Positions 5,001-45,300 are shown, numbered from the stretch's first letter. The stretch: DNA of 64,000 bases from Antedon mediterranea (GCF_964355755.1 NC_092673.1:18721648-18785647); one strand, 5' to 3'. Numbers and translations are program-made. Notes: generated by a model from the letters alone, not told the origin.

Positions 5001-8000
5001 ACCTATGGAAACACATGGTGTACTGGTTACCTGAATTTACTAGTATTTATTTGCACTCTGCACACCTTCGAACAATATATAATATAATAATAAAAACCTT
5101 TAAACAATATAATTATATATTATAGTCTCTAGTATGCAACACAAGAACGTAGGCACAACATAAGTGAGTGAGTGGCCGAGCGGTTAAGACAGTGGAACAG
5201 TAATCACGTAGCCATAACATCGGCAGGGGTTCGAGGCTCACTCACTCCATGGTTCTGGTGGTAGAACGAGTCTTCTCGGATAAGGACTATAAACCGTAGG
5301 TCCAGTGTACACAACTTGTTCGTGTGCACTTTAAAGAACCTAGTACATCTTTCGAGACGAGTAGGGGGTTACCCCGGTGTATTAGTACATCACAGCCACT
5401 GATCACCAACTGGGCCCTCTGGGAGATCAGTCTTCGACTGAAGAGGTCACCCAGTATAAAGATAAAACAAACAAACAAACAAATAAGTAATTTGACCAAT
5501 GACAAGTGAAGGATTGAATAAGCTCAGATGAGCTGTCGCTTGTTGTAGATTACTCGCATAGCAATTTTATCTTTGTGTCTCAAGTGATTATAGTTAAACA
5601 TCGTATGCACAGGGATACCTCTTGTAAGTCCCCCCTCCCTCTATACTATCAGCTGAATCCGTCATAAGCAGACACCTCTATAAAATACTTTTTCTGGACC
5701 CAAGGATGTCCACTTACAGAAGGTTAAACTGTAATATTTTTTATTTTATTTGCAGATGAAATTGGGCGAACGAAAAGAAAAAGAAGAAAACCAGGTCAAG
5801 GTGATTAATTGAAATTAGTATATTTAAACTAAATAGACCTATGTTTTATGTAACATAATAAACTAGTAATCAACTAGTGCTTTTTATTTTAGCAAAAGAT
5901 AATTTATCAATGTTCTAAAGGCAACAACAGAACTCGCTGTCAACATAATTCAACAGCACACAGACAACTGTAAAAAGGCATTGTGTACTATAAATATTTT
6001 CCTAATTTGAAATATACATCATCTTATTTTGATCCTTTTTAGGCAGTAGTGATAAGGACCAAAATGAAGGCACATCATCCAGTCACCAATCCACACAAAG
6101 AGAAGGTAAGTTACTAGTAGATAAAGATTATGATACGAAAAGAGTTTCTCAACCTTACAACTTTACTTCCTTAATAGAAACACATGGTATATACCCCTAC
6201 CCTGACTTTACTAGTGTTTATTTGCACTCTATGAAAACCTTACAACTTTACTTCATTTATAGGAACACATGGTATATACCCCTACCCTGACTTTACTAGT
6301 GTTTATTTGCACTCTATGCAAACCTTACAACTTTACATCCTTTATGGAAACACATGGTATATACCCCTAACCTGACTTTACTAGTGTTTATTTGCACTCT
6401 ATGCAAACCTTACAACTTTACATCCTTTATGGAAACACATGGTATATACCCCTACCCTGACTTTACTAGTGTTTATTTGCACTCTATGCAAACCTTACAA
6501 CTTTACTTCCTTTATAGAAACACATGGTATATACCCCTACCTTGACTTTACTAGTGTTTATTTGCACTCTATGAAAACCTTACAACTTTACTTCCTTTAT
6601 AGAAACACATGGTATATACCCCTACCCTGACTTTACTAGTGTTTATTTGCACTCTATGCAAACCTTACAACTTTACATCCTTTATGGAAACACATGGTAT
6701 ATACCCCTAACCTGACTTTACTAGTGTTTATTTGCACTCTATGCAAACCTTACAACTTTAATTCCTTTATGGAAACACATGGTATATACCCCTACCCTGA
6801 CTTTACTAGTGTTTATTTGCACTCTATGCAAACCTTACAACTTTACTTCCTTTATAGAAACACATGGTATATACCCCTACCCTGACTTTACTAGTGTTTA
6901 TTTGCACTCTATGCAAACCTTACAACTTTACATCCTTTATGGAAACACATGGTATATACCCCTAACCTGACTTTACTAGTGTTTATTTGCACTCTATGCA
7001 AACCTTACAACTTTAATTACTTTATGGAAACACATGGTATATACCCCTACCCTGACTTTACTAGTGTTTATTTGCACTCTATGCAAACCTTACAACTTTA
7101 CTTCCTTTATAGAAACACATGGTATATACCCCTACCCTGACTTTACTAGTGTTTATTTGCACTCTATGCAAACCTTACAACTTTACATCCTTTATGGAAA
7201 CACATGGTATATACCCCTAACCTGACTTTACTAGTGTTTATTTGCACTCTATGCAAACCTTACAACTTTAATTCCTTTATGGAAACACATGGTATATACC
7301 CCTACCCTGACTTTACTAGTGTTTATTTGCACTCTATGCAAACCTTACAACTTTACTTCCTTTATAGAAACACATGGTATATACCCCTACCCTGACTTTA
7401 CTAGTGTTTATTTGCACTCTATGCAAACCTTACAACTTTACTTCCTTTATAGAAACACATGGTATATACCCCTACCCTGACTTTACTAGTGTTTATTTGC
7501 ACTCTATGCAAACCTTACAACTTTACATCCTTTATGGAAACACATGGTATATACCCCTAACCTGACTTTACTAGTGTTTATTTGCACTCTATGCAAACCT
7601 TACAACTTTAATTCCTTTATGGAAACACATGGTATATACCCCTACCCTGACTTTACTAGTGTTTATTTGCACTCTATGCAAACCTTTAAACAATATAATC
7701 ATATATTATAGTCATGATGATATGATACTGACAAAGAAATTGATGTTTAAATGATGAATTTCTGGGATTATATTATAAAATAAAAAGAATAATTCTAATT
7801 ATTAACATAAAATAACAAAATTATAGGAATGGTATTTAGTTTTACTGTTGTTTCTAAAGCTGATCATAATGTTATGCACGTAGAACATTATTTTTTTTTT
7901 AAACAAGCGAGACAAGGTAGTTAATTTTTCACAATTTATTTTAACATTTTATTTATTTAACGATTTTCTACTTTGATCACACCTATGGTCAAAAACGTTT

Positions 8001-10140
8001 GTGATCACATTTTCAAATAAAACTACCTTGTCTGTACTTTTTTCGATATATTTCAGCATCATCATTTTTTGTACCAATTTTATTTAATTACTAGAAGATG
8101 GTATGGTGTTTTAGTACAGTAATTCATAATCATATTCAAGCATTGATTAGGATTTTAGCAATTATGATAATTATGCTAAATATATATATACAGTCAACTC
8201 TCCCAATACCGGACTCTCTGAAAATCAGAAACTCTCCCAATACCAGACTTTTTTTGAGGACCAAAAGGTCCCAAATTTATATTATTACATTAAAAACACA
8301 TTCCGAATACCAGACTTTCCGGAAAACCAGACTTATTTGGTCGGTATTGGGAGAGTTGACTGTATATATATTTAGCGTGCGTACAACTGAGGACTAGTTG
8401 TGTTCCAACCGTACCACGCCGAGAATGTTAAAGAGTCGTTATCCGATCGAGTTAAAGAACAATACCATGAAAGCCTCAGTGGTCTAATGGTTAGGGCAAC
8501 TGCATATCAAGCAGACGGTCCGAGTTCGAGTCTTGGTTGGGGCGACTTTTTCTCATTCTCACAGATTTCCTCATCTTTATCGTTTCAAAAATTAATTAAA
8601 TAATTTTCAGTGTATCACCGGGCGGTTTGGAATTTATTTCTATGCCTGTTGTGTTTATATATATATAAAAGTATCTCTCGAGATCCCGCTCAGTGAATAA
8701 ATATACTGAATTATAGATGAGGGCGTATCAATTTGATCTCTGGTGCGCGTGCGTACAACTGAGGACTAGTTGTGTTCCAACCGTACCACGCCGAGAATGT
8801 TAAAGGGTCGGTATCCGATCGAGTTAAAGAACAATACCATGAAAGCCTCAGTGGTCTAATGGTTAGGGCAACTGCATATCAAGCAGACGGTCCGAGTTCG
8901 AGTCTCGGTTGGGGCGACTTTCTCTCATTCTCACAGATTTCCTCATCTTTATCGTTTCAAAAATTAATTAAATAATTTTCAGTGTATCACCGGGCGGTTT
9001 GGAATTTATTTCTATGCCTGTTGTGTTTATATATATATAAAAGTATCTCTCGAGATCCTGCTCAGTGAATAAATATACTGAATTATAGATGAGGGCGTAT
9101 CAATTTGATCTCTGGTGCGCGTGCGTACAACTGAGGACTAGTTGTGTTCCAACCGTACCACGCCGAGAATGTTAAAGAGTCGTTATCCGATCGAGTTAAA
9201 GAACAATACCATGAAAGCCTCAGTGGTCTAATGGTTAGGGCAACTGCATATCAAGCAGACGGTCCGAGTTCGAGTCTTGGTTGGGGCGACTTTTTCTCAT
9301 TCTCACAGATTTCCTCATCTTTATCGTTTCAAAAATTAATTAAATAATTTTCAGTGTATCACCGGGCGGTTTGGAATTTATTTCTATGCCTGTTGTGTTT
9401 ATATATATATAAAAGTATCTCTCGAGATCCCGCTCAGTGAATAAATATACTGAATTATAGATGAGGGCGTATCAATTTGATCTCTGGTGCGCGTGCGTAC
9501 AACTGAGGACTAGTTGTGTTCCAACCGTACCACGCCGAGAATGTTAAAGGGTCGTTATCCGATCGAGTTAAAGAACAATACCATGAAAGCCTCAGTGGTC
9601 TAATGGTTAGGGCAACTGCATATCAAGCAGACGGTCCGAGTTCGAGTCTCGGTTGGGGCGACTTTCTCTCATTCTCACAGATTTCCTCATCTTTATCGTT
9701 TCAAAAATTAATTAAATAATTTTCAGTGTATCACCGGGCGGTTTGGAATTTATTTCTATGCCTGTTGTGTTTATATATATATAAAAGTATCTCTCGAGAT
9801 CCTGCTCAGTGAATAAATATACTGAATTATAGATGAGGGCGTATCAATTTGATCTCTGGTGCGCGTGCGTACAACTGAGGACTAGTTGTGTTCCAACCGT
9901 ACCACGCCGAGAATGTTAAAGGGTCGTTATCCGATCGAGTTAAAGAACAATACCATGAAAGCCTCAGTGGTCTAATGGTTAGGGCAACTGCATATCAAGC
10001 AGACGGTCCGAGTTCGAGTCTCGGTTGGGGCGACTTTCTCTCATTCTCACAGATTTCCTCATCTTTATCGTTTCAAAAATTAATTAAATAATCTTCAGTG
10101 TATCACCGGGCGGTTTGGAATTTATTTCTATGCCTGTTGT

Positions 10141-10176
<36 letters not shown>

Positions 10177-10727
10177 TCATAATATTGAAAACTTGCTTTT
10201 CTTCAACCATAGATTTCTCAGAGGATGATTTTCGACAGTTGATTACAGACTTTGCACAATGGTTTGATGAACGTGGACTCCTTAACAGGCTACAAGTTCT
10301 ATTCATAGAAATAGTAGGTGACGTTGAAGCAGTGAAAAAAGTTACCAGTACAATAAAACTTTTAGCTCTTTTAACTGCAAATGGAAAATTGAGTCAAACA
10401 AATCTGTCTGTACTGTATGATGCAATAAAAGTAACTGAACAATTTGGCTTTGAGTCAACTATCACAGAAAAGCTTCCTGCTTTCAAAGACATCAAGGAAC
10501 ATGAGGTAGTATCATTTCCTGCACACACCCTAACAATTTTTAAGCTAGGAAAAAGTCTTAGTGATTCAGATAAAGAAACTCTTGATGGACGATACAACTT
10601 CCCTGTCCTTAAGGGGTATACTGACAGCTGGAGTTTAATTTTGGATTTTGTTCCTCGAGGGTTGTTGAGTGAAGACAAAATTAAATCCGTTAAGAAGATG
10701 TTGAAAGATGAGAAAAAGTGGAGGTGA
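214..10727 (+). CDS. Gene 1 (5'-truncated by window): ROCO/COR-like protein with C-terminal tandem DED. Exons 214-408, 602-907, 1072-1143, 1866-2079, 3002-3037, 4547-4591, 4894-4956, 5756-5800, 6043-6105, 10213-10727
   Basis: Every exon has an AG acceptor and (except the last) a GT donor, phases match (0,0,0 then all 1), and the frame is open to TGA at 10725-10727. AATAAA at about 10769. Confidence 0.8.
2312..2700. repeat. 88-90 bp minisatellite, about 4.3 copies (intronic)
   Basis: atcattattgataatctatacattgttacaacatgctgct recurs at 2331, 2421, 2511, about 2599 and partially at about 2687. Confidence 0.95.
3310..4410. mobile_element. Non-autonomous TTAA-targeting DNA transposon, Kolobok-like
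   Basis: TIR aatggacctgaaatgga(t/a)tttcgatttt at both ends, TTAA duplicated at 3306-3309 and 4411-4414, RR...YY termini. Absent from the paralogous intron near 5630. Confidence 0.8.
5166..5482 (+). mobile_element. tRNA-derived SINE with Deu/Nin-like central domain
   Basis: A box tggccgagcgg, B box ggttcgagg, core ctcggataaggactataaaccgtaggtcc...ttaaagaacc...tttcgagacgagtagggg...ccccggtgt, (CAAA)n tail, TSD ataagt (5160-5165 / 5483-5488). Empty paralogous sites near 2860 and 3200. Confidence 0.85.
6151..7684. repeat. 85-bp minisatellite, about 18 copies
   Basis: Unit aaccttacaactttacttcctttatagaaacacatggtatatacccctaccctgactttactagtgtttatttgcactctatgca repeats at an 85-bp period. Confidence 0.97.
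8191..8362. mobile_element. Tc1/mariner-type MITE
   Basis: TIR cagtcaactctcccaatacc / ggtattgggagagttgactg flanked by TA. A lone related end occurs at about 17959. Confidence 0.8.
8473..8544 (+). tRNA. tRNA-like element or pseudogene, anticodon ATC (Asp-type), variant A with T5 terminator; second copy 9217-9288
   Basis: Folds as GCCTCAG/TTGGGGC acceptor, D arm with TGGTCTAATGG, CTGC-ATATCAA-GCAG anticodon arm, CCGAG-TTCGAGT-CTTGG T arm, followed by acttttt. Confidence 0.55.
8845..8916 (+). tRNA. tRNA-like element, anticodon ATC, variant B (perfect T stem, no T5); further copies 9589-9660 and 9961-10032
   Basis: Same cloverleaf with CCGAG/CTCGG T stem, followed by actttct. Confidence 0.55.
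10213..10727 (+). CDS. Terminal exon of gene 1: tandem death-effector-domain-like module
   Basis: FRQLITDFAQWF...TIKLLALLTANGKLSQTNLSVLYDAIK and HTLTIFKLGKSLSDSDKETL...SWSLILDFVPRGLLSEDKI follow the DED pattern of caspase-8/cFLIP prodomains. Confidence 0.7.
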
Positions 10728-10964
10728 CTTTGCAGTGGTTTATTGTTCAACATTGATATAACTATGCAAATAAACAATGGATTGCAATAACATAAATAAT
10801 GAAAATAATTATTATTTAGGGAACACTTGACAACTTTACACACTTCACATGGCCTATTGCAGCTAATGAGATTTAAAGCTATTCATTTTACTGTTTTTAT
10901 TTTTGGAATATTAAACACCAGAAACTTTTCAAATTGAACTCTCATTTCTTTAGCAATATATGTC

Positions 10965-11437
10965 CTGTATGTATTGTAATACTGCAATGCAGATTGTACA
11001 CTATAGTCTATCTTGTATGAGTAGCCATTTATTTGTCAATGTAGTGTTAGGGTGTCATACCTCAGTGTATGCATTATAATACCACAATGCACGTAGTACG
11101 CTATAGTCTATCTTGTATGAGCAGCCATTTATTTGTCAATGTATTGTTAGGATGTCATACCTCAGTGTGTAATTCCACAATGCAGGTAGTATGCTATAGT
11201 CTATCTTGTATGAGCAGCCGTTTATTTGTCAATGTAATGTTAGCGTGTCATACCTCAGTGTATGCATAATACCACAATGCAGGTAGTACGCTATAGTCTA
11301 TCTTGTATGAGCAGCCATTTATTTGTCAATGTATTGTTAGGATGTCATACCTCAGTGTGTAATTCCACAATGCAGGTAGTATGCTATAGTCTATCTTGTA
11401 TGAGCAGCCGTTTATTTGTCAATGTAATGTTAGCGTG
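10965..11437. repeat. About 93-100 bp minisatellite, left part (split by the LINE)
   Basis: Recurring tcatacctcagtgtatg...cacaatgcagg...gagcagccatttatttgtcaatgta. Confidence 0.93.
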
Positions 11438-11734
11438 AAAACGTACCGGTATTGACACTGAGTGTACTAACAGCTACAGAATCGGGTGTATTTTCCCGAT
11501 TTTTGATACAAATCTAACAGGATTTTGAAAATTTAGTAGGCTTATATATTTGGGTAATGTACTACTAGTATGAAATTTCAAGATCGGTGAAGATATTCTG
11601 TTAAGATTGATGTTTTTTATTCAGTCTCTGTGTCATTAAAAGCTAGCCCGAACTGTCATTGGGATCACCGTTTGTCCAACCTGTGTGAGCTCATTGTTTG
11701 ACCGGTAGCGTCCCCTTGAAATTGGCGCGTAGTG

Positions 11735-12946
11735 ATGGCGTCATCTGAAAGGGGGCTAGCTGGAACCGAAGACATTCTACAACGAAGTCAATTACATGGC
11801 GATCATGATGATAACTCGATTGCTAATCATGGTGGTGCTGATGAAGATGATGACACCCAATTTGATCATCATGATTCCACTGGAAAAGGTCCAAATGATG
11901 TATTGATTAATGAACTTCTGTGCTTTATAGTCAATAACATGGGTAGTATGACATTTGATCGGTTACATGCTATTTGTATGGCCAATTTTCCAAATGATGA
12001 CATAAAGAAGGCCAAGGAGATGTTATGCGTCTGTGTAGGTGATCCTGAAAATGCGATTCATAAACCTCGACGCAAAGCTGATGGTATACTAAATGATGTG
12101 TTGGGCTATCTCATCCAATGTGACCTGTCTAAATTGCCTATTTTTGCTGCAGCAAACCTTAATAAAATACCGGTTGTGCCTGTGGATGCTATTGATGCCC
12201 CATTGATTTTCAGAGAACTACAAAGGTTGAGGACAGAATTCCATTGTGTTAAGGCCGACATAGCCTACGCTACTAACCAGCGATGTAAACTTGCTCAACA
12301 AGTGAGGGATGTTATGGATTCCCACAAAAAGTTAGCTGATCGTGATTTGCAACCTATTACAAACACTGTAAGTAACAAACTGTTTTCTAACGTAGTAGCA
12401 ACCAATACCGGCCCAGTTGCTAATAGTAAGAACAGCAACTCCGCTTCGGTAACACAGTTTGTGAAATCAGCTACCGTACCAGTATTGAAGAGGGGAATTA
12501 CCCGTCCAGAAGTAAACAAACATGACGTAATGACTCATGCGCGTAGGCAAGCTCCGCCTTCCAGTGATCCGGACGCTCGTGATTGGATGGATTGTGATGA
12601 CGGCTTTCAGTACCCAAGACGAAAACGCAAACGGGGTAATTTCAAGCGTGGAACCGGTGTTGATATTGCTTTAAAAGGTAGGGATCCCCCACCTTACAAG
12701 ATGTATGTAGGAAACCTGAGTCCTGATACTAAAGCGGACGAAATAAAATCGTATCTAAAAAGAGTAAAGAAAATTGACGTTACTGTGGAAGTGTTGCCTA
12801 GTAAGCGTTCTGACTATACTTCGTTTATGGTTGAATGCGGTTTTGCACATAAGAACTGTATTAATGAAGCGGAGCTCTGGCCTCAATCTGCTATAATCAG
12901 ACGGTATTATGAACCGATAAGGCAAACAATACATCATGATGGATAG
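11735..12946 (+). CDS. LINE ORF1 (coiled coil plus C-terminal RRM-like domain)
   Basis: 403-aa ORF from ATG 11735; KMYVGNLSPDTKADEIKSYL...YTSFMV...WPQSAIIRRY is RRM-like as in many LINE ORF1s. Confidence 0.85.
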   Translation: MASSERGLAGTEDILQRSQLHGDHDDNSIANHGGADEDDDTQFDHHDSTGKGPNDVLINELLCFIVNNMGSMTFDRLHAICMANFPNDDIKKAKEMLCVCVGDPENAIHKPRRKADGILNDVLGYLIQCDLSKLPIFAAANLNKIPVVPVDAIDAPLIFRELQRLRTEFHCVKADIAYATNQRCKLAQQVRDVMDSHKKLADRDLQPITNTVSNKLFSNVVATNTGPVANSKNSNSASVTQFVKSATVPVLKRGITRPEVNKHDVMTHARRQAPPSSDPDARDWMDCDDGFQYPRRKRKRGNFKRGTGVDIALKGRDPPPYKMYVGNLSPDTKADEIKSYLKRVKKIDVTVEVLPSKRSDYTSFMVECGFAHKNCINEAELWPQSAIIRRYYEPIRQTIHHDG

Positions 12947-15770
12947 TGAATCTAAAATTAATTGTAGTAAACTGAAATGTGTTTCTTTTAACTGTAGGTC
13001 ATTTAAATCTCGCAAAAACGAAATTTATGATCTTTGCATGAGTAATGATATTATTGCCATTCAGGAGCATTGGCTGCTTGATGACGAGTTACCTATATTA
13101 AAATCATTACATGAAGAGTTTGATTGTTTTGGGATATCGTCTGTTAAGAGTTCCGATGGCTTACTTGAAGGACGCCCCTATGGAGGCATTGCCATATTTT
13201 ATAGAAAATGTTTGCACGACTACATCAAAACAGTTAATTACAACGACAATAGGATTATTGGTTTGGAACTAGGAAGTGGTAATGATATTACACTCCTTAT
13301 CAATGTATATCTTCCTTATGAGTGCGATGAGCACTTCGCTGAATTTGTTGACTACCTGGGTACAATTCAATCTATAATTAGTGATTTCCATGGTGATAAA
13401 CTTATTGTATGTGGTGATTTTAATGCTGATCACAAAAAAAGATTTGGTGCTGAATTGTTAAATTTTACATCCGAGTGCGACTTAATTTTAACTGATTTAA
13501 ATCTATTAGGACAGCACTCTGATAACTTTACTTATATCAGTGATGCTTTTGCTACAACGAGTTGGCTTGATCATGTCCTGTCTACCAACGGAGCTAATGC
13601 TCGGATAAAAGAGCTTTCCATACGTTATGACATGATCGGTTCGGATCATTTTCCACTTTGCTTTGTTTATGATTTTTCTTTTGAAATTGAACATGAAAAA
13701 GATGACCAAAAGAATTATACAAGCAATATAAATTGGCAGAAGGTTACTCATCAGGAAATTTACAACTATCAGGAGCGTACTGAATTGCTGCTTAATGATG
13801 TTGTTATTCCTCCTTCAGTATGTTCATGCAATGATGTAAATTGTGGTGACACTAAACATTTTGATGATATTGATACTTTGTATAATAATATAATTTCTTG
13901 TCTTAATCAAGCTGCTAATCATTCATTTGTTTCGCATGAAAGTAAATCTTTTAACGTTGTTCCCGGTTGGAACGACTATGTTTCGGAAGCTCATGATATA
14001 GCTAGGGAAGCTTTCTTGTTGTGGAAATGTAATGGGAAACCTAGACATGGTCCTTTATTTGATACCATGAAAGTTGCTAGATCTCGTTTTAAACTGACTC
14101 TTCGGAACTGCAGACAGAATGAAGAGCAACTTCGAGCTGATAAGATTGCGAACTCTTATATTAATAACGATTTTAACAGTTTTTGGAATAACGTAAAGCG
14201 TATGAACAACTCATCTTCTGGTTCATCTAACATTATTAATGATGTTAGAGGGGATAATAATATATGTAAAACATGGGCTGATCATTATGAGAAGCTTTTC
14301 AATTGTGTTAACAATGATACTCATAGAATTTATGTTGAAAGACATCTTAATGAAATTAATGTATCTGCTTTTGATGATAAAATTTGTACTGATAGTAATA
14401 TATTGGATAGTATAAATAAGCTCAATAGTGGTAAATCCCCTGGGTTTGACGGGCTTAGTGCAGAGCATTTGAAGTATGCTTCAAAACATGTTATTACTTT
14501 ACTTAGTTTATGTTTTAATGCTATGTGTATCCACGGCCATGTCACTGATGAAATGGTACGAGTTGTACTGGTGCCTATAATTAAGAGTAAATCTGGTGAC
14601 ATTACGAGTATGGATAATTATAGGCCTATAGCTCTTTCTTCTGTTGTATCTAAGATATTTGAAACATTGTTAATCAATTATTGTGGAGATACCCTTAAGT
14701 CAGGGGATCACCAGTTTGCTTTTAAAAGTCAACACTCAACGGATACTTGTATCTTTGTTTTTAAGCAGATAGTAGATTACTATAATAGGAATGGGAGCCC
14801 CGTATTTACTTGTTTTCTCGACGCGAGTAAAGCGTTCGACCGAGTCAATCACTGGTCACTGTACAGGCAATTAATTATGAGAGAAACAAACATTATTGCT
14901 ATTAGACTTCTAAAATCTTGGTATGAGAATCAACGATTTTTTGTTAGATGGGGTAACTCTATGTCTTCAGGTTTTAAAGTTACCAATGGCGTTAGACAGG
15001 GTGGTGTTATGTCTCCTCTGTTATACAATGTTTACATTGACAATTTAAACAGTATGCTTAGTGATTGTAATTTTGGTTGTGAGCTCAATAATACAAAGTT
15101 CAACAACTTAAGTTATGCAGATGACATGGTCTTACTTGCGCCCTCTTTAGATGCCCTCCAAAAGATGGTTAACATATGTGAGGATTTTGCTAATGACTTT
15201 GATGTATTATATAATTCAAAAAAATCAATTTGCATGTGTTTTTGCCCTAGGAAAAGAAAACTGAATGGTAATTATGTTACTGTTCTATGTGGTAAAGAAC
15301 TAAATTACGTTCAATCCACTACCTACCTTGGTTGTGTTATCAGCAATGATACTAGGGACGAACTGGATATTAAAAGGCAATATCGATCATTATGTATTAG
15401 AGGTAACTCTCTTTGTAGAAAATTTAGTAAATGCTCAACAGATGTTAAGATTACTTTGTTTAAGTCATACTGTATTAGTATGTATTGTGCGGCCTTATGG
15501 TGCGATTTTAATGTAAAAACTATAAAGTCATTACAGGTCTGTTATAATAACGCACTTAGAAAGATTTTAAGACGCTCAAGGAGCTGTAGTGCTAGTGCTA
15601 TGTTTGTTGATAACCATGTTCCCTCTTTCTATGAGTACATTCGGAAATCAATTTTTTGTTTCAAAACAAAAATTGAAAAAAGCTGTAATACTTTAATTAC
15701 ATGTGTTTTTTCTCGTATTCTAAAAGATTCAAAGTTGCATAGAAAATGGACAGAACTTTTGTATATTTAA
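12936..15770 (+). CDS. LINE ORF2, apurinic endonuclease plus reverse transcriptase
   Basis: SFNCRS, IQEHWL, GDFNA, LDH, SDH (APE); YRPIAL, FLDASKAFD, GVRQGG, YADD, YLG (RT); intact 944 aa. Confidence 0.96.
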   Translation: MMDSESKINCSKLKCVSFNCRSFKSRKNEIYDLCMSNDIIAIQEHWLLDDELPILKSLHEEFDCFGISSVKSSDGLLEGRPYGGIAIFYRKCLHDYIKTVNYNDNRIIGLELGSGNDITLLINVYLPYECDEHFAEFVDYLGTIQSIISDFHGDKLIVCGDFNADHKKRFGAELLNFTSECDLILTDLNLLGQHSDNFTYISDAFATTSWLDHVLSTNGANARIKELSIRYDMIGSDHFPLCFVYDFSFEIEHEKDDQKNYTSNINWQKVTHQEIYNYQERTELLLNDVVIPPSVCSCNDVNCGDTKHFDDIDTLYNNIISCLNQAANHSFVSHESKSFNVVPGWNDYVSEAHDIAREAFLLWKCNGKPRHGPLFDTMKVARSRFKLTLRNCRQNEEQLRADKIANSYINNDFNSFWNNVKRMNNSSSGSSNIINDVRGDNNICKTWADHYEKLFNCVNNDTHRIYVERHLNEINVSAFDDKICTDSNILDSINKLNSGKSPGFDGLSAEHLKYASKHVITLLSLCFNAMCIHGHVTDEMVRVVLVPIIKSKSGDITSMDNYRPIALSSVVSKIFETLLINYCGDTLKSGDHQFAFKSQHSTDTCIFVFKQIVDYYNRNGSPVFTCFLDASKAFDRVNHWSLYRQLIMRETNIIAIRLLKSWYENQRFFVRWGNSMSSGFKVTNGVRQGGVMSPLLYNVYIDNLNSMLSDCNFGCELNNTKFNNLSYADDMVLLAPSLDALQKMVNICEDFANDFDVLYNSKKSICMCFCPRKRKLNGNYVTVLCGKELNYVQSTTYLGCVISNDTRDELDIKRQYRSLCIRGNSLCRKFSKCSTDVKITLFKSYCISMYCAALWCDFNVKTIKSLQVCYNNALRKILRRSRSCSASAMFVDNHVPSFYEYIRKSIFCFKTKIEKSCNTLITCVFSRILKDSKLHRKWTELLYI

Positions 15771-15889
15771 TCTCATGTATACTTTTACGTGTGTTAACTA
15801 GTATCAGTAAAGCCATAATATGTGTTGTTTTTGTAAACTTTATGTGTTTCATATGGACAGTTTGTCTGAAATAAAGTTGAATTGAATTG

Positions 15890-17342
15890 ATACCTCAGTG
15901 TATGTCGTGTGATATCACAATGCAGATTGTACACTAATAGTTGAATGAGCAGCCGTTTATTTGTCAATGTAATGTTAGCGTGTCATACCTCAGTGTATGT
16001 ATTGTAATACCACAATGCAGGTTGTACACTAATAGTTGAATGAGCAGCCGTTTATTTGTCAATGTAATGTTAGCGTGTCATACCTCAGTGTATGTATTGT
16101 AATACCACAATGCAGGTAGTACACTAATAGTTGAATGAGCAGCCGTTATTTGTTAATGTAATGTCAGCGTGTCATACCTCAGTGTATGTATTGTAATACC
16201 ACAATGCAGGTTGTACACTAATAGTTGAATGAGCAGCCGTTATTCGTTAATGTAATCTCAGCGTGTCATACCTCAGTGTATGTATTGTAATACCACAATG
16301 CAGGTACACTATAGTTAAATGAGCAACCGTTTATTTGTCAATGTAATGTTAGCGTGTCATACCTCAGTGTATGTATTGTAATACCACAATGCAGGTAGTA
16401 CACTATAGTTAAATGAGCAACCGTTTATTTGTCAATGTAATGTTAGCGTGTCATACCTCAGTGTATGTATTGTAATACCACAATGCAGGTTGTACACTAA
16501 TAGTTGAATGATCAGCCGTTTATTTGTCAATGTAGTGTTAGGGTGTCATACCTCAGTGTTTGTATTGTAATATCACAATGCAGGTTGTACACTAATAGTT
16601 GAATGATCAACCGTTTATTTGTCAATGTAACGTTAGCGTGTCATACCTCAGTGTATGCATAATACCACAATGCAGGTAGTATGCTATAGTCTATCTTGTA
16701 TGAGCAGCTATTTATTTGTCAATGTAGTGTTAGGGTGTCATACCTCAGTGTTTGTATTGTAATATCACAATGCAGGTTGTACACTAATAGTTGAATGATC
16801 AACCGTTTATTTGTCAATGTAACGTTAGCGTGTCATACCTCAGTGTATGCATAATACCACAATGCAGGTAGTATGCTATAGTCTATCTTGTATGAGCAGC
16901 CATTTATTTGTCAATGTAGTGTTAGGGTGTCATACCTCAGTGTATGTATTGTAATACCACAATGCAGGTAGTATGCTATAGTCTATCTTGTATGAGCAGC
17001 CATTTATTTGTCAATGTAGTGTTAGGGTGTCATACCTCAGTGTATGTATTGTAATATCACAATGCAAGTAGTATGCTATAGTCTATCTTGTATGAGTAGC
17101 CATTTATTTGTCAAATGTAGTGTTAGGGTGTCATACCTCAGTGTATGCATAATACCACAATGCAGGTAGTATGCTATAGTCTATCTTGTATGAGCAGCCA
17201 TTTATTTGTCAATGTAGTGTTAGCGTGTCATACCTCAGTGTATGCATAATACCACAATGCAGGTAGTATGCTATAGTCTATCTTGTATGAGCAGCCATTT
17301 ATTTGTCAATGTAGTGTTAGGGTGTCGTAGCTCAGTGTATGT
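15890..17342. repeat. About 93-100 bp minisatellite, right part (about 15 copies)
   Basis: Same unit as 10965-11437, resuming at atacctcagtg directly after the LINE tail. Confidence 0.93.
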
Positions 17343-18708
17343 ACAGATACAGTATTACTACTATACATATTTTATGCGATTATTTCTGACATGACAAGAT
17401 TAAAGCTTTGCTTAATACTGTTTTTTTTTTATTGGTTTCCATTTTATATTAATTTAGTATTTGTTTTTTTAAATGAAATTAAATAACATTAGCTATGTAT
17501 GTGTTTAATCGCCCTTAACATTATTTGGGAAATTGTTTTTAAATGAAAACAAACTACCGGCATAAAACGATAATGCAATTAAGAAGTCATTTTTTGTTTA
17601 CAACTTCAAAATTTCAATTTAGTATAAATGACCCACCATTTGTACCTATCTAGTGAGTAGCTCAACATTTAAATGACCCACCCTTTGTACCTATTTCATA
17701 GTGAGTAGCTCAACATTTAAAAGTTTATTTGGTTTAGATGCAGTTTATTTATTTGTTGTACATTACAGTGATGAAATATTATAATATAAAATGTGAATAA
17801 GATGATTTATTTTTGTATAAAGAACATTGTAATAATAAATATACAGTAATTTATATTTTGATTCATTTTATCAGTCATTGTGTTTTGTGTGTATAGCAAT
17901 ATAAAGGATTACTTGTGTTATAAATTGTCTGCTACATTAATTTTGTAACTGTAAAATACAGTCAACTCTCCCAACCCAAAACATTCATGAAAACTCTTAA
18001 CAAGAATATTTTAAAGACCAGAATTCCTTTCATTCTTTTATAAAATGCTTTTAAGAAATCATACTTTTTAGCTTTGATCAAGTGTGTTTGGCTTCTATAG
18101 AGAGCTCTATATCTTAATTGATATAATAGGTGTTACATTTGTCTTATTTTCAGCATTGAAGCTGCTTTTTGTTTTATCTACCATAGAACAAAAATATAAA
18201 AGAAATTAATTCAATTTTTCTTTTCTAATAAAATGCGTAAAAAGAATTAAAAAAATAAAATATAAAACTGGATATTATTCTTTATACAAATTTGTAAGGA
18301 AGGATTTAATTGGAAGAGGAAGAAGAGAAATGTAGTCCTAATAAAACTTATAGCAATATAATATTTTATCCATTTTACCATGGAGAAATATGATATTAAT
18401 TATTAACCGGAGTTTTTATGTTACCGCGATGTGGCCAATCGGGCCAATTACAGTAAATCATGGTAAATGTATTTTTTTTTTTTTTAACTCTTGCGTTTTA
18501 TATAAACATTGATTGCGCCCTCAATAAAGTTTAATTTCAACAACATACCACACAAACAAACTTTGACAACATGTATCTGAATAAAAAAAAGTAAGTAGGG
18601 CCTATTTATCTTATTATGGACTTAAAAGCCAACGGAATTCTTTAGAATGGCAGATAATATTCATTGATAGGCATTATTAAACCTATCTTACTCATATTAT
18701 GTTGGACT

Positions 18709-18885
18709 TGTAATGTATTGTATTCATGATCATGTAGAATAATGATACAGCGCCCTCTATCCGATGTGGATTCATGTATTTGTTGGTGAATAAAGCACTC
18801 CAGTACACACGGCAAAACGAGGTGTCCATTGTATTTATTTTCGTTAATGAATCACATAATATTAAACATAATATCGGACATTGCA
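18709..18885 (+). repeat. 5' LTR (177 bp)
   Basis: tgtaatg...cattgca; contains AATAAA at about 18789. Confidence 0.95.
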
Positions 18886-18899
18886 TGGTGTCAGAAGTG
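18886..18899 (+). promoter_or_regulatory. Primer binding site (tRNA-Leu-like)
   Basis: tggtgtcagaagtg directly after the LTR, complementary to a tRNA 3' CCA end. Confidence 0.8.
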
Positions 18900-18934
18900 C
18901 AGGAACTGTGAAGTAAGTACTGGTGACCACAAAT

Positions 18935-21900
18935 ATGGCGGAATTAACAGGAATTCCAATACCTACGATAGATTGGAAGGCACAGAATTTGCCGGAGGCA
19001 CTAAGAAAGTTCAAGCGCACAGTGACGCTGATCTTCGAGGGCCCACTGGCTGACAAGCCAGACAAAACCAAACTACGCTACCTCCTACTTTGGGTAGGCG
19101 AAACGGGACGTGACATTAAAGATTCTTGGAACCTGGCAGATGGGGACGAAACTCTGGATAAGCATTGGGAGAAATTTGAAGCATATGTCACCCCAAAATC
19201 AAACTTCCGGGTAGCACGATTTCAACTCCGAGCAATAAAACAGAAGGAAGGAGAAGCTATTGACAGTTTCATCACAAAAGCCAAAATCATACTGGCAGAC
19301 TGCGATTATACAAACAAGGAGGAACAGCTGCTAGACTGTATCATAGCCGGGGTTCACAATGAAACCACCAGAAGGAAACTCATCGCAAAGGACAAGAACA
19401 TGACGGTAGACCAAGCCCTGACCATGATCCGAGCACATGAGTGTACAACCCGTCAAATGAACGACATTCAAGAAGCCCAGTCCATGAAAAGCCAAGAGCA
19501 AACGGTCCACGAAATGAGATTCAAGAGGCATTATGAGAGACCACAAAAGCATGGACAATCGTTCCGAAATACAAACTCACACGGTAAGAATTTTCAAGCT
19601 GCTGAACCAATATACAATCACAACAAACATCCATCGCAGAGGTTTACCACTACAGGGAACCATAACAAATGTGGGCGGTGTGGTTATAACAACCACAAGG
19701 ATGGTGTCAGGTGTCCCGCAATTGATGCGCAATGCAACTCATGCAACCGCAAGGGACATTTCAGCCGGGCGTGCAGAACAAAGGGCATAGAGAAACAGAT
19801 GAAGGAACTCAGAGTGGAAAGCGACGAAGACGGCGACAATTGCGACCTGTTTGAAATGACAGAAATAACAATATCGGAATTAGAACGAGAGAGGGCCGCA
19901 AAAGGTTGGTTCCAGGAATGCCTGGTACAACATGGGTTTCCAGTATCCTTTAAAATAGATACTGGCTCTGAAGCCAATGTAATCTCATCTGATGTAATGT
20001 CTTTAATTGATGCTGAATTTCAGCGAAAATTGATAAAGAAACAGGATAGGTTAAAGGGATTTGGTGGCAAAATAGTCAAACCAATGGGCCAAATTCAAAT
20101 GCTTTTGAAAACTAAAGTATCAAAAGCAAATGTTGAGCAGATGCTAACATTCCAAATTATAAAGGGGCCTTGTTCGCCCATACTTAGTTTAGACTCATGT
20201 GAACAACTAGGCATAATTAAGCGGGTGGAATCCATTGAGAAAGAACAAGTAAATTATAATGCCAAAATCAAGTCACTACTAGAGGCAAACAAAGATTTGT
20301 TTGAAGGGTTGGGCTGTCTTAAGAACTGTGAATTCGACATTAAGGTAGACAAGTCTATACAGCCCAAGCAACTCCCACCACGTCAAATACCGCACAGAAT
20401 CAAAGATAAAGTTAAAGAGGAGTTAGAAAGAATGACCAAACTCGGGGTAATAGAGCGTGTTACTGAGCCCACAGAGTGGGTCAGCCAAATCACATCTGTT
20501 GCGAAGAAGAACGGTAAAGTTCGAATATGTTTAGATCCTAGAGAATTGAATAAAGCCATATTAAGACAACATTACCCAATGAAAACCGTGGAAGAGGTTG
20601 CCGCTACAATGCCAAACGCTAAAATCTTCTCAAAACTTGATGCCACATCAGGCTATTGGCAGCTCAAACTAACAAAAAAGGCGTCACTACTAACGTGTTT
20701 CAACACTCCTTGGGGCCGGTATAAATTTAACAGAGCCCCATTCGGAATAAACTCCATTGCGGAAGAATGGCAACGGGCAATGATAGAAGGTTTTGAAGGA
20801 GTACCTGTTAATATAATAGTCGATGATTTCTTAATTACTGCAAAAGATACCGAGCAACATTTCGAACGGCTCAAAGAGTTCTTAGACCGTGTGAGACAGA
20901 CAGGCCTAAAATTAAATCGAGATAAGTCAGAAATCAACCGAAGCGAAGTAGAATATGTGGGGCATCTAATCACCAGCGAAGGTTTAAAACCAAATCCAGA
21001 ACGAATTAGAGCCTTGAGAGACATGCCGAAGCCTGTAGATAAAGCGCAGCTCCAAACATTCTTAGGAATGATGACATATTTGGCAAAGTTTCTCCCTAAC
21101 ATGTCCAAAATGAGCGAGCCGCTCAGACTACTTCTTAAAAAGGGGAACGAATTTGATTGGAGTACTGCCCAAGAGCGAGCGTACAATGAGTTAATCATAG
21201 CTGCTACCACGGCTCCAGTGCTAAGGTATTACGATCCGACACTACCGATCACACTTGCCACAGATGCGAGCAACCACGGTTATGGGGCAGTCATCATGCA
21301 AATGAACCAACCAGTCGCATATGGTTCCAGGTGTTTAAATTCGGCCGAATTAAATTATGCACCAGTCGAGAAGGAGATTAACGCTATTGTATTTGGGTGC
21401 AATAAATTCCACCACTACGTATATGGTAGCACAGTGGTTGTAGAAACCGACCATAAGCCCTTAATTGGCATATTTGACAAGCCACTACACAAACTGAGCC
21501 CAAGAATTCAAAGAATGAGAATGGCACTATTAAGATACGACCTGAAACTAAAATGGGTGCCCGGTAAAGACAATGTAATCGCAGATACATTAAGTAGAGC
21601 AACCCTTAACGATAAACCAAAAGACAAAGAAGAAGACACGCCGTTAGTGTTAAGCATAATCTCGCAACTACCCATCTCTGATGAAAAGCTACAACAAGTC
21701 AAACTAATGACCAATAACGACGAAACACTCGCACAAGTAAAGACATTAATTCAAGGTGGTTGGCCGGAACACATTAAAACCCTAGCCAATGACTCGCCAG
21801 CAAGGCCATATTTTAAATACAGGAACGACCTCTCATGCTGCGATGATGTCATATTTAAAAATAATCAAATAGTTATTCCAAGAAAAATGCAAAAAGAGAT

Positions 21901-22990
21901 GCTAAAAAAGCTACATGCAAGCCACCAGGGTATGGTAAAATCTAAATCAAGGGCTAAAGGGATAATGTTCTGGCCAGGAATGAACGCCCAAATAGAAGAA
22001 ATCGTCTCACAGTGCGAAACATGCATGGAGATAAAACCACAAAGGCCAAAAGAGCCGATGATTCCACACGAGTTGCCAGATGCACCCTGGATTAAAATAG
22101 GAACAGATTTGTTTGAGATTCAGGGAAGGAACTATCTGATACTAACAGACTATTATTCGAAATTCCCTGAGATCATAGAAATACCAGATAAGACTGCAAG
22201 CTCAGTAATCAAAGCTACATTGGACGTCTTTGCAAGACAAGGTGGACCACAAATTATCATTAGTGATAACGGTCCATGTTACTCGAGTGAAGAATACTCG
22301 AACATGATGAAAGAATGGGGCATTAAGCATATTACAATCAGTCCAACCCACTCTCAATCCAATGGTCAAGCCGAAAACACTGTTAAAACTGTAAAAAACA
22401 TAATCAAGAAGTGCACTAAATCGAACGAATTGAGAAATACACCATTGGATGGAACATACGGATACAGTCCAAGCCAGCTACTAAATGGAAGACCTTTAAG
22501 GTCAAAGCTCCCCACTAAACCCGGACTGCTAAGACCACAATACATACCAAACGTATACAAGCAACTATGTGCTAGACAGGACAAACAAAAGTACTATTAT
22601 GATCAACATGCATCTAAGCCCATACCACCATTGAATGAAGGACAGAAGGTTAGATTTCAAAATGGAAACAAATGGGAGTATGGTACCATGACTAAGAGTC
22701 TTGAACAACCACGTAGTATGTTGGTAGAAAGCAGCAGAGGAAGAAAATTCAAAAGAAATAGCAAGCACATTTCTCCAACAAAAGAAAAAAGTGAACCGTT
22801 AGATAGCAGTAAGATTAGTAGTGATGTTGAGGATGAGCCTACTGAAGGCCCAAATACCACTGAGGTCACACCACACCAACACAGTATAAAAACACATAAT
22901 CAGAAGTATGACTCTGTGCCAGCGCGATCTAATGTAGTAATAACAAGGAGTGGGCGTGAGTCCAAGCCAGCTAAAAGACTAGATATATAA
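18935..22990 (+). CDS. Gag-Pol polyprotein (Zn knuckles, protease, RT, RNase H, integrase)
   Basis: Double CCHC knuckle CGRCG...H...CPA...CNSC...H...C, IDTGS, LDATSGYWQ, IVDD, TDAS, ETDHKPL, H...H...C..C, GTDLF / SDNG / E. Confidence 0.96.
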   Translation: MAELTGIPIPTIDWKAQNLPEALRKFKRTVTLIFEGPLADKPDKTKLRYLLLWVGETGRDIKDSWNLADGDETLDKHWEKFEAYVTPKSNFRVARFQLRAIKQKEGEAIDSFITKAKIILADCDYTNKEEQLLDCIIAGVHNETTRRKLIAKDKNMTVDQALTMIRAHECTTRQMNDIQEAQSMKSQEQTVHEMRFKRHYERPQKHGQSFRNTNSHGKNFQAAEPIYNHNKHPSQRFTTTGNHNKCGRCGYNNHKDGVRCPAIDAQCNSCNRKGHFSRACRTKGIEKQMKELRVESDEDGDNCDLFEMTEITISELERERAAKGWFQECLVQHGFPVSFKIDTGSEANVISSDVMSLIDAEFQRKLIKKQDRLKGFGGKIVKPMGQIQMLLKTKVSKANVEQMLTFQIIKGPCSPILSLDSCEQLGIIKRVESIEKEQVNYNAKIKSLLEANKDLFEGLGCLKNCEFDIKVDKSIQPKQLPPRQIPHRIKDKVKEELERMTKLGVIERVTEPTEWVSQITSVAKKNGKVRICLDPRELNKAILRQHYPMKTVEEVAATMPNAKIFSKLDATSGYWQLKLTKKASLLTCFNTPWGRYKFNRAPFGINSIAEEWQRAMIEGFEGVPVNIIVDDFLITAKDTEQHFERLKEFLDRVRQTGLKLNRDKSEINRSEVEYVGHLITSEGLKPNPERIRALRDMPKPVDKAQLQTFLGMMTYLAKFLPNMSKMSEPLRLLLKKGNEFDWSTAQERAYNELIIAATTAPVLRYYDPTLPITLATDASNHGYGAVIMQMNQPVAYGSRCLNSAELNYAPVEKEINAIVFGCNKFHHYVYGSTVVVETDHKPLIGIFDKPLHKLSPRIQRMRMALLRYDLKLKWVPGKDNVIADTLSRATLNDKPKDKEEDTPLVLSIISQLPISDEKLQQVKLMTNNDETLAQVKTLIQGGWPEHIKTLANDSPARPYFKYRNDLSCCDDVIFKNNQIVIPRKMQKEMLKKLHASHQGMVKSKSRAKGIMFWPGMNAQIEEIVSQCETCMEIKPQRPKEPMIPHELPDAPWIKIGTDLFEIQGRNYLILTDYYSKFPEIIEIPDKTASSVIKATLDVFARQGGPQIIISDNGPCYSSEEYSNMMKEWGIKHITISPTHSQSNGQAENTVKTVKNIIKKCTKSNELRNTPLDGTYGYSPSQLLNGRPLRSKLPTKPGLLRPQYIPNVYKQLCARQDKQKYYYDQHASKPIPPLNEGQKVRFQNGNKWEYGTMTKSLEQPRSMLVESSRGRKFKRNSKHISPTKEKSEPLDSSKISSDVEDEPTEGPNTTEVTPHQHSIKTHNQKYDSVPARSNVVITRSGRESKPAKRLDI

Positions 22991-23179
22991 GTAAAGCGCA
23001 TTGAGAAAGCAAGTAGAAAGTAGTATCTTAAGTAGCGATTGTTAAAATGTAAATAAAAGAAAATGCCACAATGCAATAACTCATATTGAACATCTTTTCA
23101 AAATGTCAGTTTATCACAAACTACTGTATGTACAAACTAATTTAAAAAAAAAAATAAATAAATATATTAAAAAGGGGCA

Positions 23180-23346
23180 TGTAATGTATTGTATTCATGA
23201 TCATGTAGAATAATGATACAGCGCCCTCTATCCGATGTGGATTCATGTATTTGTTGGTGAATAGTACACACGGCAAAACGAGGTGTCCATTGTATTTATT
23301 TTCGTTAATGAATCACATAATATTAAACATAATATCGGACATTGCA
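23180..23346 (+). repeat. 3' LTR (167 bp)
   Basis: Identical to the 5' LTR except for a 10-bp deletion across AATAAA. Confidence 0.95.
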
Positions 23347-42300: not shown

Positions 42301-45300
42301 AAAAGTCCTAAAGGCAACAGTATCACTGTCACAAGAGTCAAATGATATTGATCCAGTGGAAGTGAATTGTAAGTATTTAAAATGCAACAACAATTAAAGT
42401 CTAAATTTAGAATGATTGTAATAAATAAAATGTACTATTCAAATACGGTAATCAGACATTACCATCCATGACAATAACCACCCATTATTAACTGTACCAT
42501 TGTTAGAATATGGGGTGGAATCAATATAGGTGTTGGCTTGTTTTTTATCTAGCACTACAATACACTTTGGTTACATTGCTAGTTCCTAAAACACCTTAAT
42601 TCTTCCGCATATCAAGCAGAGGATTTTTATTTCGAATATCGGTTGGGTGTTTTTTTTTCTAATTCTTACAGATTTTCTCATCTTAATTTTTTTATATTAT
42701 TTAATTTCCAGTATAATATTACTAGTCAAGTTTTTCTATATATATATACACTATATATAAATCTGGTTTCTTTTTTTATTGAAAAAATGATTAAATATTT
42801 TATTTGTTATAGGTAATGTTGAGACATCAGGACCAAATCCAGGTATGTTATATTAATTGTGGTAATGATTAAGTCTGTTTTCACCTTGACCAGAGAAAAG
42901 GCATAAGCCAATACGTCTGAGGCAGATACTAGATGCAAGGGCTGCCAGCAGTTCTGATTTTAAATGCTTGATGGGATCTCAACTCCCAGACGGTCTCCCA
43001 TCCAAGCTCCAACCGGGTCCAACGTTGCTCAACTTTGGTGATCAGACAAGAAAACCAGTGTTTCAACATGATAAGGCCGTATCATATCATGTAGTGCATG
43101 AACAAACAAAAAAACAGACTACAATTTGTAGAATTTAATTCACCACCATTTCTATGGAAAATTATACAATAAAGAGTGCCCTTAAGCACCATTTTGTCTG
43201 GCACTATTAGCCAGATTTTATCAACTTTACAGGTTATATTCCAACCAATGTGAATAGTTTTATGGTAAGCGCCGGCAGGCATCTATGCCGCATGCCTATG
43301 AACATTTTTAGACCATGATACATTATAACAAATATATTTACTGTAATTTTTAGCTAATTTGTTCATCCCATGCTGGTACAGGTGTTCCTCCCAGTACAGG
43401 TGTGTCTTCTGGTACAGGTGTGTCTTCAGGTACAGGTGTTCCTTCCAGTACAGGTGTGTATTCTGGTGCAGGTGTGTCTTCTTGTACAGATAAACAAAAT
43501 TTTCAAAACTTTCTTTTATTTAAAAGTCGAAGATAGCCAGGTCTCGGGTCCATTCTGTTGTCGTCACAGATTGATATCTTCATCAGTACTTCTATGAATG
43601 GATGATTAGGTGGGAACACGAACGCTAGTTGATCATACCCAGTACCGTTTTGATCGTACGATTAATCGGGAAACCTCCTCACGATATATATAATATATTC
43701 TATATAATAACATTAAAATGTTTACTTTTCTTGTCACAGTTACATAGTAATATTTTTAGTTAATGGTTATAGTTACTCAATAATAGTATAATTGTTTGTT
43801 GCAGAAACAAGAAATCCATTGGAAGACAAGTTCAACAAGTTAAATTATGATCTCAGTGAAGTATTTATGAAGTATCAGAAAAGATATTATTTTTTGAGAT
43901 GTTGTCTCTCTGAGCACATTGCATTACAGGTCCTTGGCAATAGAGATTGCATAGCAAATGATTATTTCAATGAACTCTCTGAGAAAGGATATATCAAACC
44001 AACTGATGTTGATCTTTTGCTAAATATTGCAGAATTATCAGAAATTCAGGAAGCTAGAAATGTTGTAGCACAGTATATGAGAGACAACAATGTTAAAAAT
44101 ACTGATAGACATAAGTTGTCCCCATATAGGAAAAGATTGTGCAAGGCATTGAGAGAGTTTAACCCAAATGAAATCAATAAGATTAATGCTTTTTATCAAT
44201 TGGAATTATCAACCATTTGGGATGTCGCATTTGAGTTAGAGAGGAAAAACAAATTAGTGAATAAATCACAGAGAAAAGCGTTTGCTAACATTCTTGGACC
44301 AACTCCTAAGAAGATACTTGGTATGTACAATATTTTTTGTATTAAAAAATTGTCTCTAGAGTAGGTGTTGTTAATAAAAATATTAGTTTTTATGAAAAGA
44401 TTTTGCTGGTGGCCTTTATTTTACACTGACAATCTGTATTGATAAGAAAATACTAAAAGTACAGTACATTTTCTCACATCAGATCAGACCATATGTTTTA
44501 GTATGTGGCTGCCTTGAATGAAAACTTCAAAACTATTGCAGAGAAATTCATTTTTAATGCTAATTTATTTAAAAAAAATAAACAACAGACAAAATAGCTA
44601 ATAGTATTGTTAAAGACACCTTCCCTACAATTTGTGACGTTTTGTAAAAATAATACATACATATTACTTTAAAAACATTAAACCAGGTCATTCCTTGTCG
44701 TAAATGTACGTTTTATGGTAAATTATGATAAAAAGTGAGAAACAATGCACTACTTAAGTAGCTCGCGGCGAGTGACCTCTCGTAGTCGGTCTTTAGGCCT
44801 AGCCTAGCTAGGCTTAGTTTTGTAGGCCTAGCTGGTAAACATCGGTAACGTACGAACATCGTACGCTACCTATATACCTAGCCTGACGTCGTATAGTTGC
44901 TGCATTAATTGTCTTTCTATTTTTGCCAGACTCCATTGATACAAATTGAGGAAAACCCGGTATTTTCGCTGAAAAGTTAGGAGTCTTCCATTTGTTTTGG
45001 CCTCACGATCGATCGAAAAGTGGGTGAATTACATACGAAAAAAAAAAAAAATATCAATCCGCGCGCAATGCATTTTGCGATTTATAGCGGGCCGCTATAA
45101 TTATTAGAATCGGCTTATTTTTCACATTTTTAATCATTTAAAGACAAAAATTAGGACGCAATAGGACCATATAGTATTAATATTAAATATAGTTTGAGAT
45201 CTTAAATTAGATCTAAAAAATGTAGGGAAGGTGTCTTTAATGTCACCAAGTTAATTTAATGATAGATGATACCACACATACCGACATGAAATTATTAAAA

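Follow-up and report, generated by a model that had tools for sequence, protein, structure and literature searches.

The window, the whole 64-kb stretch of DNA that was analysed, contains a tandem array of a 372-bp unit a short distance upstream of a coding exon (Table 1). TRF delimits the repeat at 8375-10155, with a period of 372, 4.8 copies, and 98% matches, and a (TA)14.5 run follows at 10144-10172, in agreement with the approximately 4.8 head-to-tail units of the initial annotation. The unit is non-coding and has a GC content of 0.41. Unit starts are found at 8375, 8747, 9119, 9491, and 9863, the first unit being 5′-truncated and lacking 79 bp of the monomer that runs from TA to TA. Six positions vary among the units. 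Positions 60 (AGAGG in units 1-5), 160 and 176 (TCTCC at each), and 313 (CTCT across the four full units) define a variant A, to which units 1 and 3 belong, and a variant B, comprising units 2, 4, and 5; the differences at positions 65 (TGTTT) and 231 (TTTTC) are private. These variable positions bear out the A-B-A-B-B alternation described previously. Units 1 and 3 are identical, variants A and B are separated by 4-5 differences in 372 bases, and identity among units ranges from 98.7% to 100%. The sole informative haplotype switch, from unit 4 to unit 5, has its break between positions 314 and 59, away from the TA run.

The downstream exon is of the DED type and a bystander. Its acceptor lies 38 bases past the TA run, close to the distance of about 40 bp given before. 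Pfam does not call its product at E 0.01. In the Atlas, the clusters closest to it are those of DED proteins, at a score of 0.92 and with 191 shared features; DED is on 51% of members, and the recognition value of 2220 is just under threshold. The DED-protein clusters nearest to the exon are commonest in echinoderms, a hint at the host group that falls short of naming it, and many paralogs of the exon, with ~80-85% identity, are present in the public sequencing runs X1, X5, and X6. Other exons lie at 40505-41077, 43792-44364, and 54098-54895, with ZU5, further helical, and HEPN_DZIP3 domains. Together with the DED exon, they suggest an immune or death-domain gene cluster.

Table 1. Coordinates of the array, its parts, its junctions, and related features in the window
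Feature	Position	Strand	Remarks
Tandem array	8375..10172	+	Four full 372-bp units and 281 bp of a fifth, into (TA)14
GC-rich hairpin	8375..8419	+	Array 5′ end, in every unit; has CTGAnGA heptamer, no hammerhead
Leader segment	8421..8451	+	Complementary to tRNA 3′ arm and trailer (8532-8560); in every unit
tRNA-like module, unit 1	8473..8544	+	Variant A; anticodon ATC, purine at position 32
tRNA-like module, unit 2	8845..8916	+	Variant B
tRNA-like module, unit 3	9217..9288	+	Variant A
tRNA-like module, unit 4	9589..9660	+	Variant B
tRNA-like module, unit 5	9961..10032	+	Variant B
T5 run	8547..8551, also 9291-9295	+	Two bases past cloverleaf; broken in B; family-majority state
Internal (TA)6 of each unit	8656..8667, 9028-9039, 9400-9411, 9772-9783	.	
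Post-TA segment	8688..8722	+	Complementary to trailer (unit positions 195-249); closes predicted fold
(TA)14 at array 3′ end	10144..10172	.	Right part of likely target microsatellite
Left junction	8175..8376	.	(TA)5 and (TA)4 flanking MITE
MITE	8191..8362	.	172 bp, 21-bp perfect terminal inverted repeats, TA-flanked
Decayed family member (relic)	42607..42761	+	Unit position 128 (anticodon stem) to TA run
DED-type coding exon	10213..10727	+	Multi-copy gene family, bystander; acceptor AG 10211-10212

Junctions of the array and a second copy

The 5′ end of the array abuts a MITE that contains sub-repeats of its terminal motif and is likely a separate, later insertion; a second, partial MITE end is found at 17956-17974. 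When the MITE is set aside, there is a TA run on the left too, and the array is TA-flanked at either end. The left TA run lies between two hexamers that are reverse complements of each other, and the array begins with the final two bases of the second hexamer; by a hand estimate, such an arrangement has a chance of about 3 in 10,000. We infer that the 5′ joint contains a short fold-back copy of the flank. The palindrome was also considered as a part of the MITE terminal repeat, which was rejected, as the second MITE end lacks it.

A relic of the same family lies ~32 kb from the array (blastn E 1.7e-9, nhmmer E 2.4e-4). Its trailer matches the unit up to the TA run (only 4 of 300 shuffles score as high), and neither the leader upstream nor the next unit downstream gives a match (236 and 226 of 300 shuffles, respectively, score as high). 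The two insertions of the 64-kb window have a common 3′ end at a TA run and different 5′ ends. The anchoring in (TA)n proposed in the initial annotation therefore holds at the array, which ends in (TA)14, at the relic, which ends at a TA run, and at the left flank, which is also TA. The MITE abutting the 5′ end, the left-side TA run, and the decayed copy had been overlooked there.

Dispersed copies in public contigs

Of 16 sequencing runs listed, 11 (from organisms A, B, and C, with one unlabelled) share 0.20-0.80 of the words of the unit, and contigs were aligned onto the unit for six. Contigs matching one unit number 4437 in run X1 and 1792 in run X5, and they span all likeness classes, from <90% to >99%. 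In X1, depths summed over contigs are 0.06-2.7 million on the unit, versus 140-330 for the listed contigs that are single and long; these sums do not count copies, and a rough reading that allows for overlapping contigs gives hundreds to a few thousand copies. We are nearly certain that the unit belongs to an abundant and diverged family of dispersed mobile elements. A purely local satellite, which the near-identity of the units might suggest, has next to no probability and is refuted because the window holds a second copy and two organisms hold thousands of pieces. These same observations uphold the earlier suggestion of a dispersed, high-copy, non-coding mobile family. The family motif has no match in viral contigs and none in metagenome contigs.

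Organisms C, D, and E, with 2, 1, and 5 low-depth contigs that may be stray DNA, were excluded from the host range. In run X9 (organism C), a 247-base contig of depth 11 that is almost identical to the unit (9908-10124) contains a 30-base internal duplication and lacks the exon, and stray DNA is its simplest reading. Run X6, guessed to be RNA, also covers the exon flank and was excluded from any reading of expression.

The ends of the contigs give indications on the arrangement at other loci. Among the 22 pieces listed, five stop at the TA run and continue with 74-876 further bases, and one starts at the TA run after 8.9 kb. Two listed records continue beyond the TA run, and trailer is connected to post-TA segment in 4 of the 15 listed joints, so the head-to-tail order of units also occurs at other loci. 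The depth falls to 60,000-68,000 at 8684-8709, versus 0.8-1.2 million on either side. This drop after the TA run was considered as an element boundary and rejected, since indels in the major subfamily explain it better; the contig stops at TA may likewise be partly due to clipping, the post-TA segment carrying indels in the main subfamily. An opposite-strand joint between unit positions 178 and 350 (8552/8724), with a short side of 38 bases, is found in one contig each of X1 and X5 and is possibly a shared back-to-back insertion at another locus.

The tRNA-like module and the RNA

ARAGORN calls a tRNA-Asp(atc) with a 72-base cloverleaf in all five units, and the Rfam tRNA model gives 46.9 bits for units 1 and 3 and 50.2 bits for units 2, 4, and 5, for a gathering score of 29. 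As previously noted, in variant A a T5 run is present and the T stem includes a G·T pair; in variant B the T stem is perfect and T5 is missing. The complementarity that this implied between A and B does not survive comparison with the family, where most of the depth has both a perfect T stem (C at the variable position, 96% in X1 and 98% in X5) and T5 (99-100%). Hence, A and B are private drifts, each variant having lost one feature, and there is no trade-off. The family majority is C at tRNA position 4 (92% in X1, 99% in X5), A at position 24 (64% and 93%), and T at position 27 (62% and 91%). With the T-stem C, these letters mend the cloverleaf defects of the window, improving four pairs.

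One might expect from these features a cluster of functional tRNA-Asp(ATC) genes, as the cloverleaf is complete and improved in four pairs by the majority letters, with G at the discriminator position and T5 in place. However, the anticodon and loop geometry expected of a functional cytosolic tRNA are absent (ATC, with a purine at position 32), and the module belongs to a family of thousands of diverged pieces. According to the available text of PMC8450103, moreover, tRNAscan-SE treats 14 anticodons as unexpected in eukaryotes and marks them as probably non-functional, Asp-ATC among them. We consider functional genes highly improbable. ATC is read through the loop in the listed X1 and X5 consensus strings and in the relic, and in a table of variants that omits two nearby ones no other letter of the anticodon loop is listed at 10% or more. 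The ATC anticodon is shared throughout a repeat family and gives no indication about decoding. An inosine at position 34 would read GAA too under the wobble rule, and the tRNA-like body presumably resembles Arg/Glu-type tRNAs more than Asp. The unusual anticodon probably travels with the repeat as a passenger and has no decoding role.

The sense RNA of the TA-to-TA monomer (9040-9399) has a predicted fold with z −4.34, and none of 100 shuffles folds as well; for the same monomer, the antisense RNA gives z −0.08 and the DNA gives −1.26 and −0.88. The B monomer RNA has z −3.71. None of 38 control folds from the window reaches −3.7, the lowest being −2.46, for the unit of a 307-bp array. The predicted helices are nested, pairing leader positions 47-77 with 158-186, and 314-348 with 195-249. 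In the context of the monomer, the acceptor and T stems have a pairing probability of 0.00, and four anticodon-stem pairs have 0.98-1.00. In a short transcript of Pol III type (tRNA to T5), the acceptor stem reaches 0.71-1.00, and the T stem 0.29 in variant A. The model thus predicts that the leader masks the 3′ arm of the tRNA in read-through RNA, and that a cloverleaf would be formed by the first module of a transcript alone. Twenty variant sites were picked from two tables by their share in X1 or X5, leaving out low-share rows and 8686-8707. At six of these, a G·U pair of the window corresponds to a Watson-Crick pair in the family; two are unchanged pairs, nine are unpaired, and three break a predicted pair in the family. 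This points to selection on the sense RNA, as far as the predicted structure goes, with pair counts that favour the fold derived from the window's own sequence.

The asymmetry between strands bears on a movement at the DNA level, by which an element of the rolling-circle Helitron/Replitron type or a recombinase-integrated circle would integrate at TA with the tRNA piece as cargo. Elements of these kinds form head-to-tail arrays, and variants could become mixed if integration recurred at a regenerated (TA)n. However, the fold is significant only as sense RNA and not as DNA, no terminal inverted repeats or Helitron-type ends were found at the TA boundaries, the 5′ ends vary, and the switch from unit 4 to unit 5 does not break at TA. 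DNA-level movement is therefore quite improbable. An RNA intermediate is in our view likely.

The module lies within the element, as the initial annotation had proposed, and is not its 5′ head: the loose ends before the tRNA read as leader in 51 contigs of X1 and 32 of X5, and the loose-end consensus of each of the two organisms has sequence resembling the leader ahead of the tRNA. In an alternative scenario, a LINE would have mobilised a tRNA-headed SINE of ~195 bp with a (TA)n tail, and a copy of it would later have been amplified in tandem as a satellite, together with ~175 bp of flank. The relic does resemble a 5′-truncated SINE with a TA tail, and the tRNA and trailer have ~2-3 times the depth of the leader, which is compatible with an older class of copies lacking the leader. 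There are also precedents in the available text of two sources, with tandem SINE arrays of 4-15 units in a bivalve, introns included (PMC11481361), and SINE-derived satellites in reptiles (PMC10702118). The array shares with such tandem SINEs and SINE-derived satellites a tRNA derivation, a short intronic tandem arrangement, and a microsatellite at the 3′ end. It differs from them, as far as these texts go, in having the tRNA internal, behind a family-wide leader of ~175 bp that pairs with it, and in the T5 that directly follows. Under the SINE scenario one would expect unrelated flanks before the tRNA, and the loose ends give leader instead; divergent pieces of leader are present with the depth of a single locus (records 7, 8, 21, and 22); the leader is extensively complementary to tRNA and trailer, which is not expected of a random flank; and a T5 directly after the tRNA would shorten the SINE transcript. 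By the classical description of tRNA-derived SINEs (SINE2), the 3′ microsatellite tail is present and the 5′-terminal tRNA head is absent; among the LINEs within the 64-kb window, none matches the 3′ tail. We regard the SINE scenario as rather unlikely.

Mechanism and relation to known elements

The initial annotation had evoked retrozymes, and in the strict sense this is not supported, as no type I hammerhead was found. The Rfam scan of 7500-11000 at E≤1 gives no ribozyme, its sole non-tRNA match being sub-threshold and in the exon, and a hammerhead descriptor has no match on the sense strand. On the antisense strand, a site similar to a hammerhead core is found in unit 5 only, being absent from the other four units and from the family majority. 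The CTGAnGA heptamer at unit positions 13-19 (about 0.16 matches expected by chance, by a hand estimate) was considered as half a hammerhead and rejected, as no stem II and GAAA follow. A descriptor of an HDV-like 5′ hairpin, unchecked against a known ribozyme, has no match. The unit nevertheless has several similarities with the animal non-LTR retrozymes, as described in the available text of PMC7229834 and 10.64898/2026.07.22.740005: a non-coding tandem unit within 150-450 bp, low GC (41% here), a lack of LTR, PBS, and PPT, dispersed multimers, and a proposed dependence on Penelope-like elements (PLEs). Unlike them, it lacks a type I hammerhead and contains, in its interior, a tRNA-like module followed by a Pol III terminator; the mixture of A and B units in the array also argues against a single monomer circle as template.

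By eye, the unit has no LTR, PBS, or PPT; a PBS and a PPT are clear in the Gypsy element of the window and in the Helenus records. Still, the segment between unit positions 52 and 189 starts with TGTT, ends with CACA, and encloses the tRNA and T5, which recalls the Helenus-type TRIMs. These are tiny LTR retrotransposons with a tRNA-like Pol III promoter in each LTR, and the locus would then be an LTR-internal tandem array. According to the available text of PMC10886601, Helenus LTRs are of the form TG…CA, with an internal tRNA-like part and then a T-run, and tandem arrays occur. Our unit is similar to Helenus TRIMs and TRIMp3 in its internal tRNA-like promoter followed by a T-run and in being a short non-autonomous element; it differs in having neither PBS nor proper PPT, and the array ends at (TA)n instead of TG…CA boundaries with 4-5 bp TSDs. 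No PBS follows the candidate LTR, and the sole TGG-type candidate (8743) is misplaced and altered in 22-36% of the depth. The purine run before TGTT has five bases, and the internal parts of the animal Helenus elements examined mostly end in G-rich tracts (PMC10886601). Neither the ends of the array nor those of the relic coincide with the candidate LTR ends, and no loose-end peak falls at positions 52 or 189 among the peaks listed. None of six exact motifs was found in the Helenus data file, in which line breaks could hide matches. An LTR placed at positions 52-189 or 52-357 was rejected because both framings lack PBS and PPT and their ends do not match, and we hold a Helenus-type origin to be very unlikely.

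Further parallels are found among the PLEs. In the available text of PMC8557442, Naiad elements favour (TA)n as target, occur as partial tandems truncated at the 5′ end, and have no hammerhead; non-autonomous derivatives of Chlamys (e.g., MRC1) insert in multiple head-to-tail copies. The array resembles both in its (TA)n targets, 5′ truncation, head-to-tail multicopy arrangement, and lack of a hammerhead, and in a TSD that is obscured by the microsatellite. It is unlike Naiad in having no ORF, and it carries a tRNA module, none being mentioned for Naiad or Chlamys in that text. By analogy, the enzyme would most likely be of the Penelope type, because (TA)n preference, 5′ truncation, partial tandems, and absence of hammerheads are found in Naiads and head-to-tail multimers in Chlamys. 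The best explanation of the array is one young insertion of an abundant family. As to its nature, we put slightly more than even confidence in a non-autonomous, ribozyme-less element transcribed by Pol III, whose multimers are copied into (TA)n by a Penelope-type RT.

Under this explanation, Pol III would start at the A/B boxes of one unit and sometimes read through T5 into the next units, the tRNA module acting as promoter and not as decoder. A nicked genomic (TA)n would then pair with an internal (UA)n of the RNA and prime reverse transcription, and this pairing would account for the 3′ end being fixed at TA. The RT would cross several units and halt, here at the GC-rich hairpin; the 5′ joint would be closed by the short fold-back copy of the flank, and the MITE would have landed later in the left TA run. 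Among the routes to multimers that had been proposed, the Penelope-like one fits the features of Naiad and Chlamys, and the rolling-circle copying of a single monomer circle is not supported, as it cannot yield A-B-A-B-B with 4-5 linked differences. A single pass round one 372-nt circle is excluded because it would give identical units. The order of variants implies instead that the template was a linear multimer or a 744-nt dimer circle on which one jump occurred, or that the array grew after its insertion, which could occur by unequal exchange of a 744-bp A-B block.

Several observations count against copying by a Penelope-type RT. With T5 at 99-100% of the family depth, most Pol III transcripts should be ~77 nt long, so that read-through has to be postulated. 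The window shows no autonomous partner, and no PLE frame was recognised among its ORFs (7 of 27 frames scanned against Pfam). The RT frames of the window are of LINE and Gypsy types, and the unit has no significant match to either. Echinoderms, the likely host group, are absent from the eight host phyla listed for Naiad in the available text of PMC8557442. An adjacent inverted 5′-truncated copy is described there as frequent, though not obligatory, among PLEs; no inverted copy of the unit lies beside the array, and one opposite-strand joint per run is found at other loci.

A variant of the retrozyme idea would keep the Penelope-type RT and replace the hammerhead by the tRNA module, which would be both a Pol III promoter and a trimming site for host tRNA enzymes. 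RNase P/Z, or a cut in the anticodon loop followed by RtcB ligation, would give monomer or dimer circles. The antisense leader would be a switch that hides downstream cloverleaves and leaves the anticodon stem-loop exposed, and the RT would copy a 744-nt A-B circle into (TA)n. We find such a ribozyme-free retrozyme unlikely.

If the preferred explanation, Pol III multimers copied by a Penelope-type RT, is correct, Penelope-type enzymes have SINE-like passengers that are multimeric, ribozyme-less, and endowed with an internal tRNA promoter. A literature search, from which most subscription journals and Repbase were out of scope, found no tRNA-bearing, ribozyme-less PLE passenger. The family would also offer a small testable substrate for PLE priming at (TA)n and for tandem insertion, both of which are named as unresolved in the available text of PMC8557442. 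It furthermore explains one way in which false tRNA-Asp(ATC) annotations arise in such genomes. The surprise does not lie in the anticodon. Helenus elements inflate predicted tRNA counts, odd anticodons included, according to the available text of PMC10886601.

The window contains other repeats. A Gypsy-type LTR retrotransposon (18704-23346) has one open frame of 1357 aa and near-identical LTRs; a TGG-type PBS directly follows the 5′ LTR, the 3′ LTR is preceded by a purine tract, and the element looks young. A two-ORF LINE (11720-15770), with endonuclease and RT and 949 aa open, is flanked by two parts of one 93-97 bp tandem repeat (10970-17343), as if inserted in it. Two tandem families, one of 88 bp (2309-2701 and 47448-48022) and one of 65-66 bp (46923-47368 and 62157-64000), are dispersed tandem repeats, because each is found at two distant places. 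Finally, arrays of an 85-bp unit (18 copies, 6151-7686) and of a 307-bp unit (10 copies, 27856-31039) have 95-96% identity.
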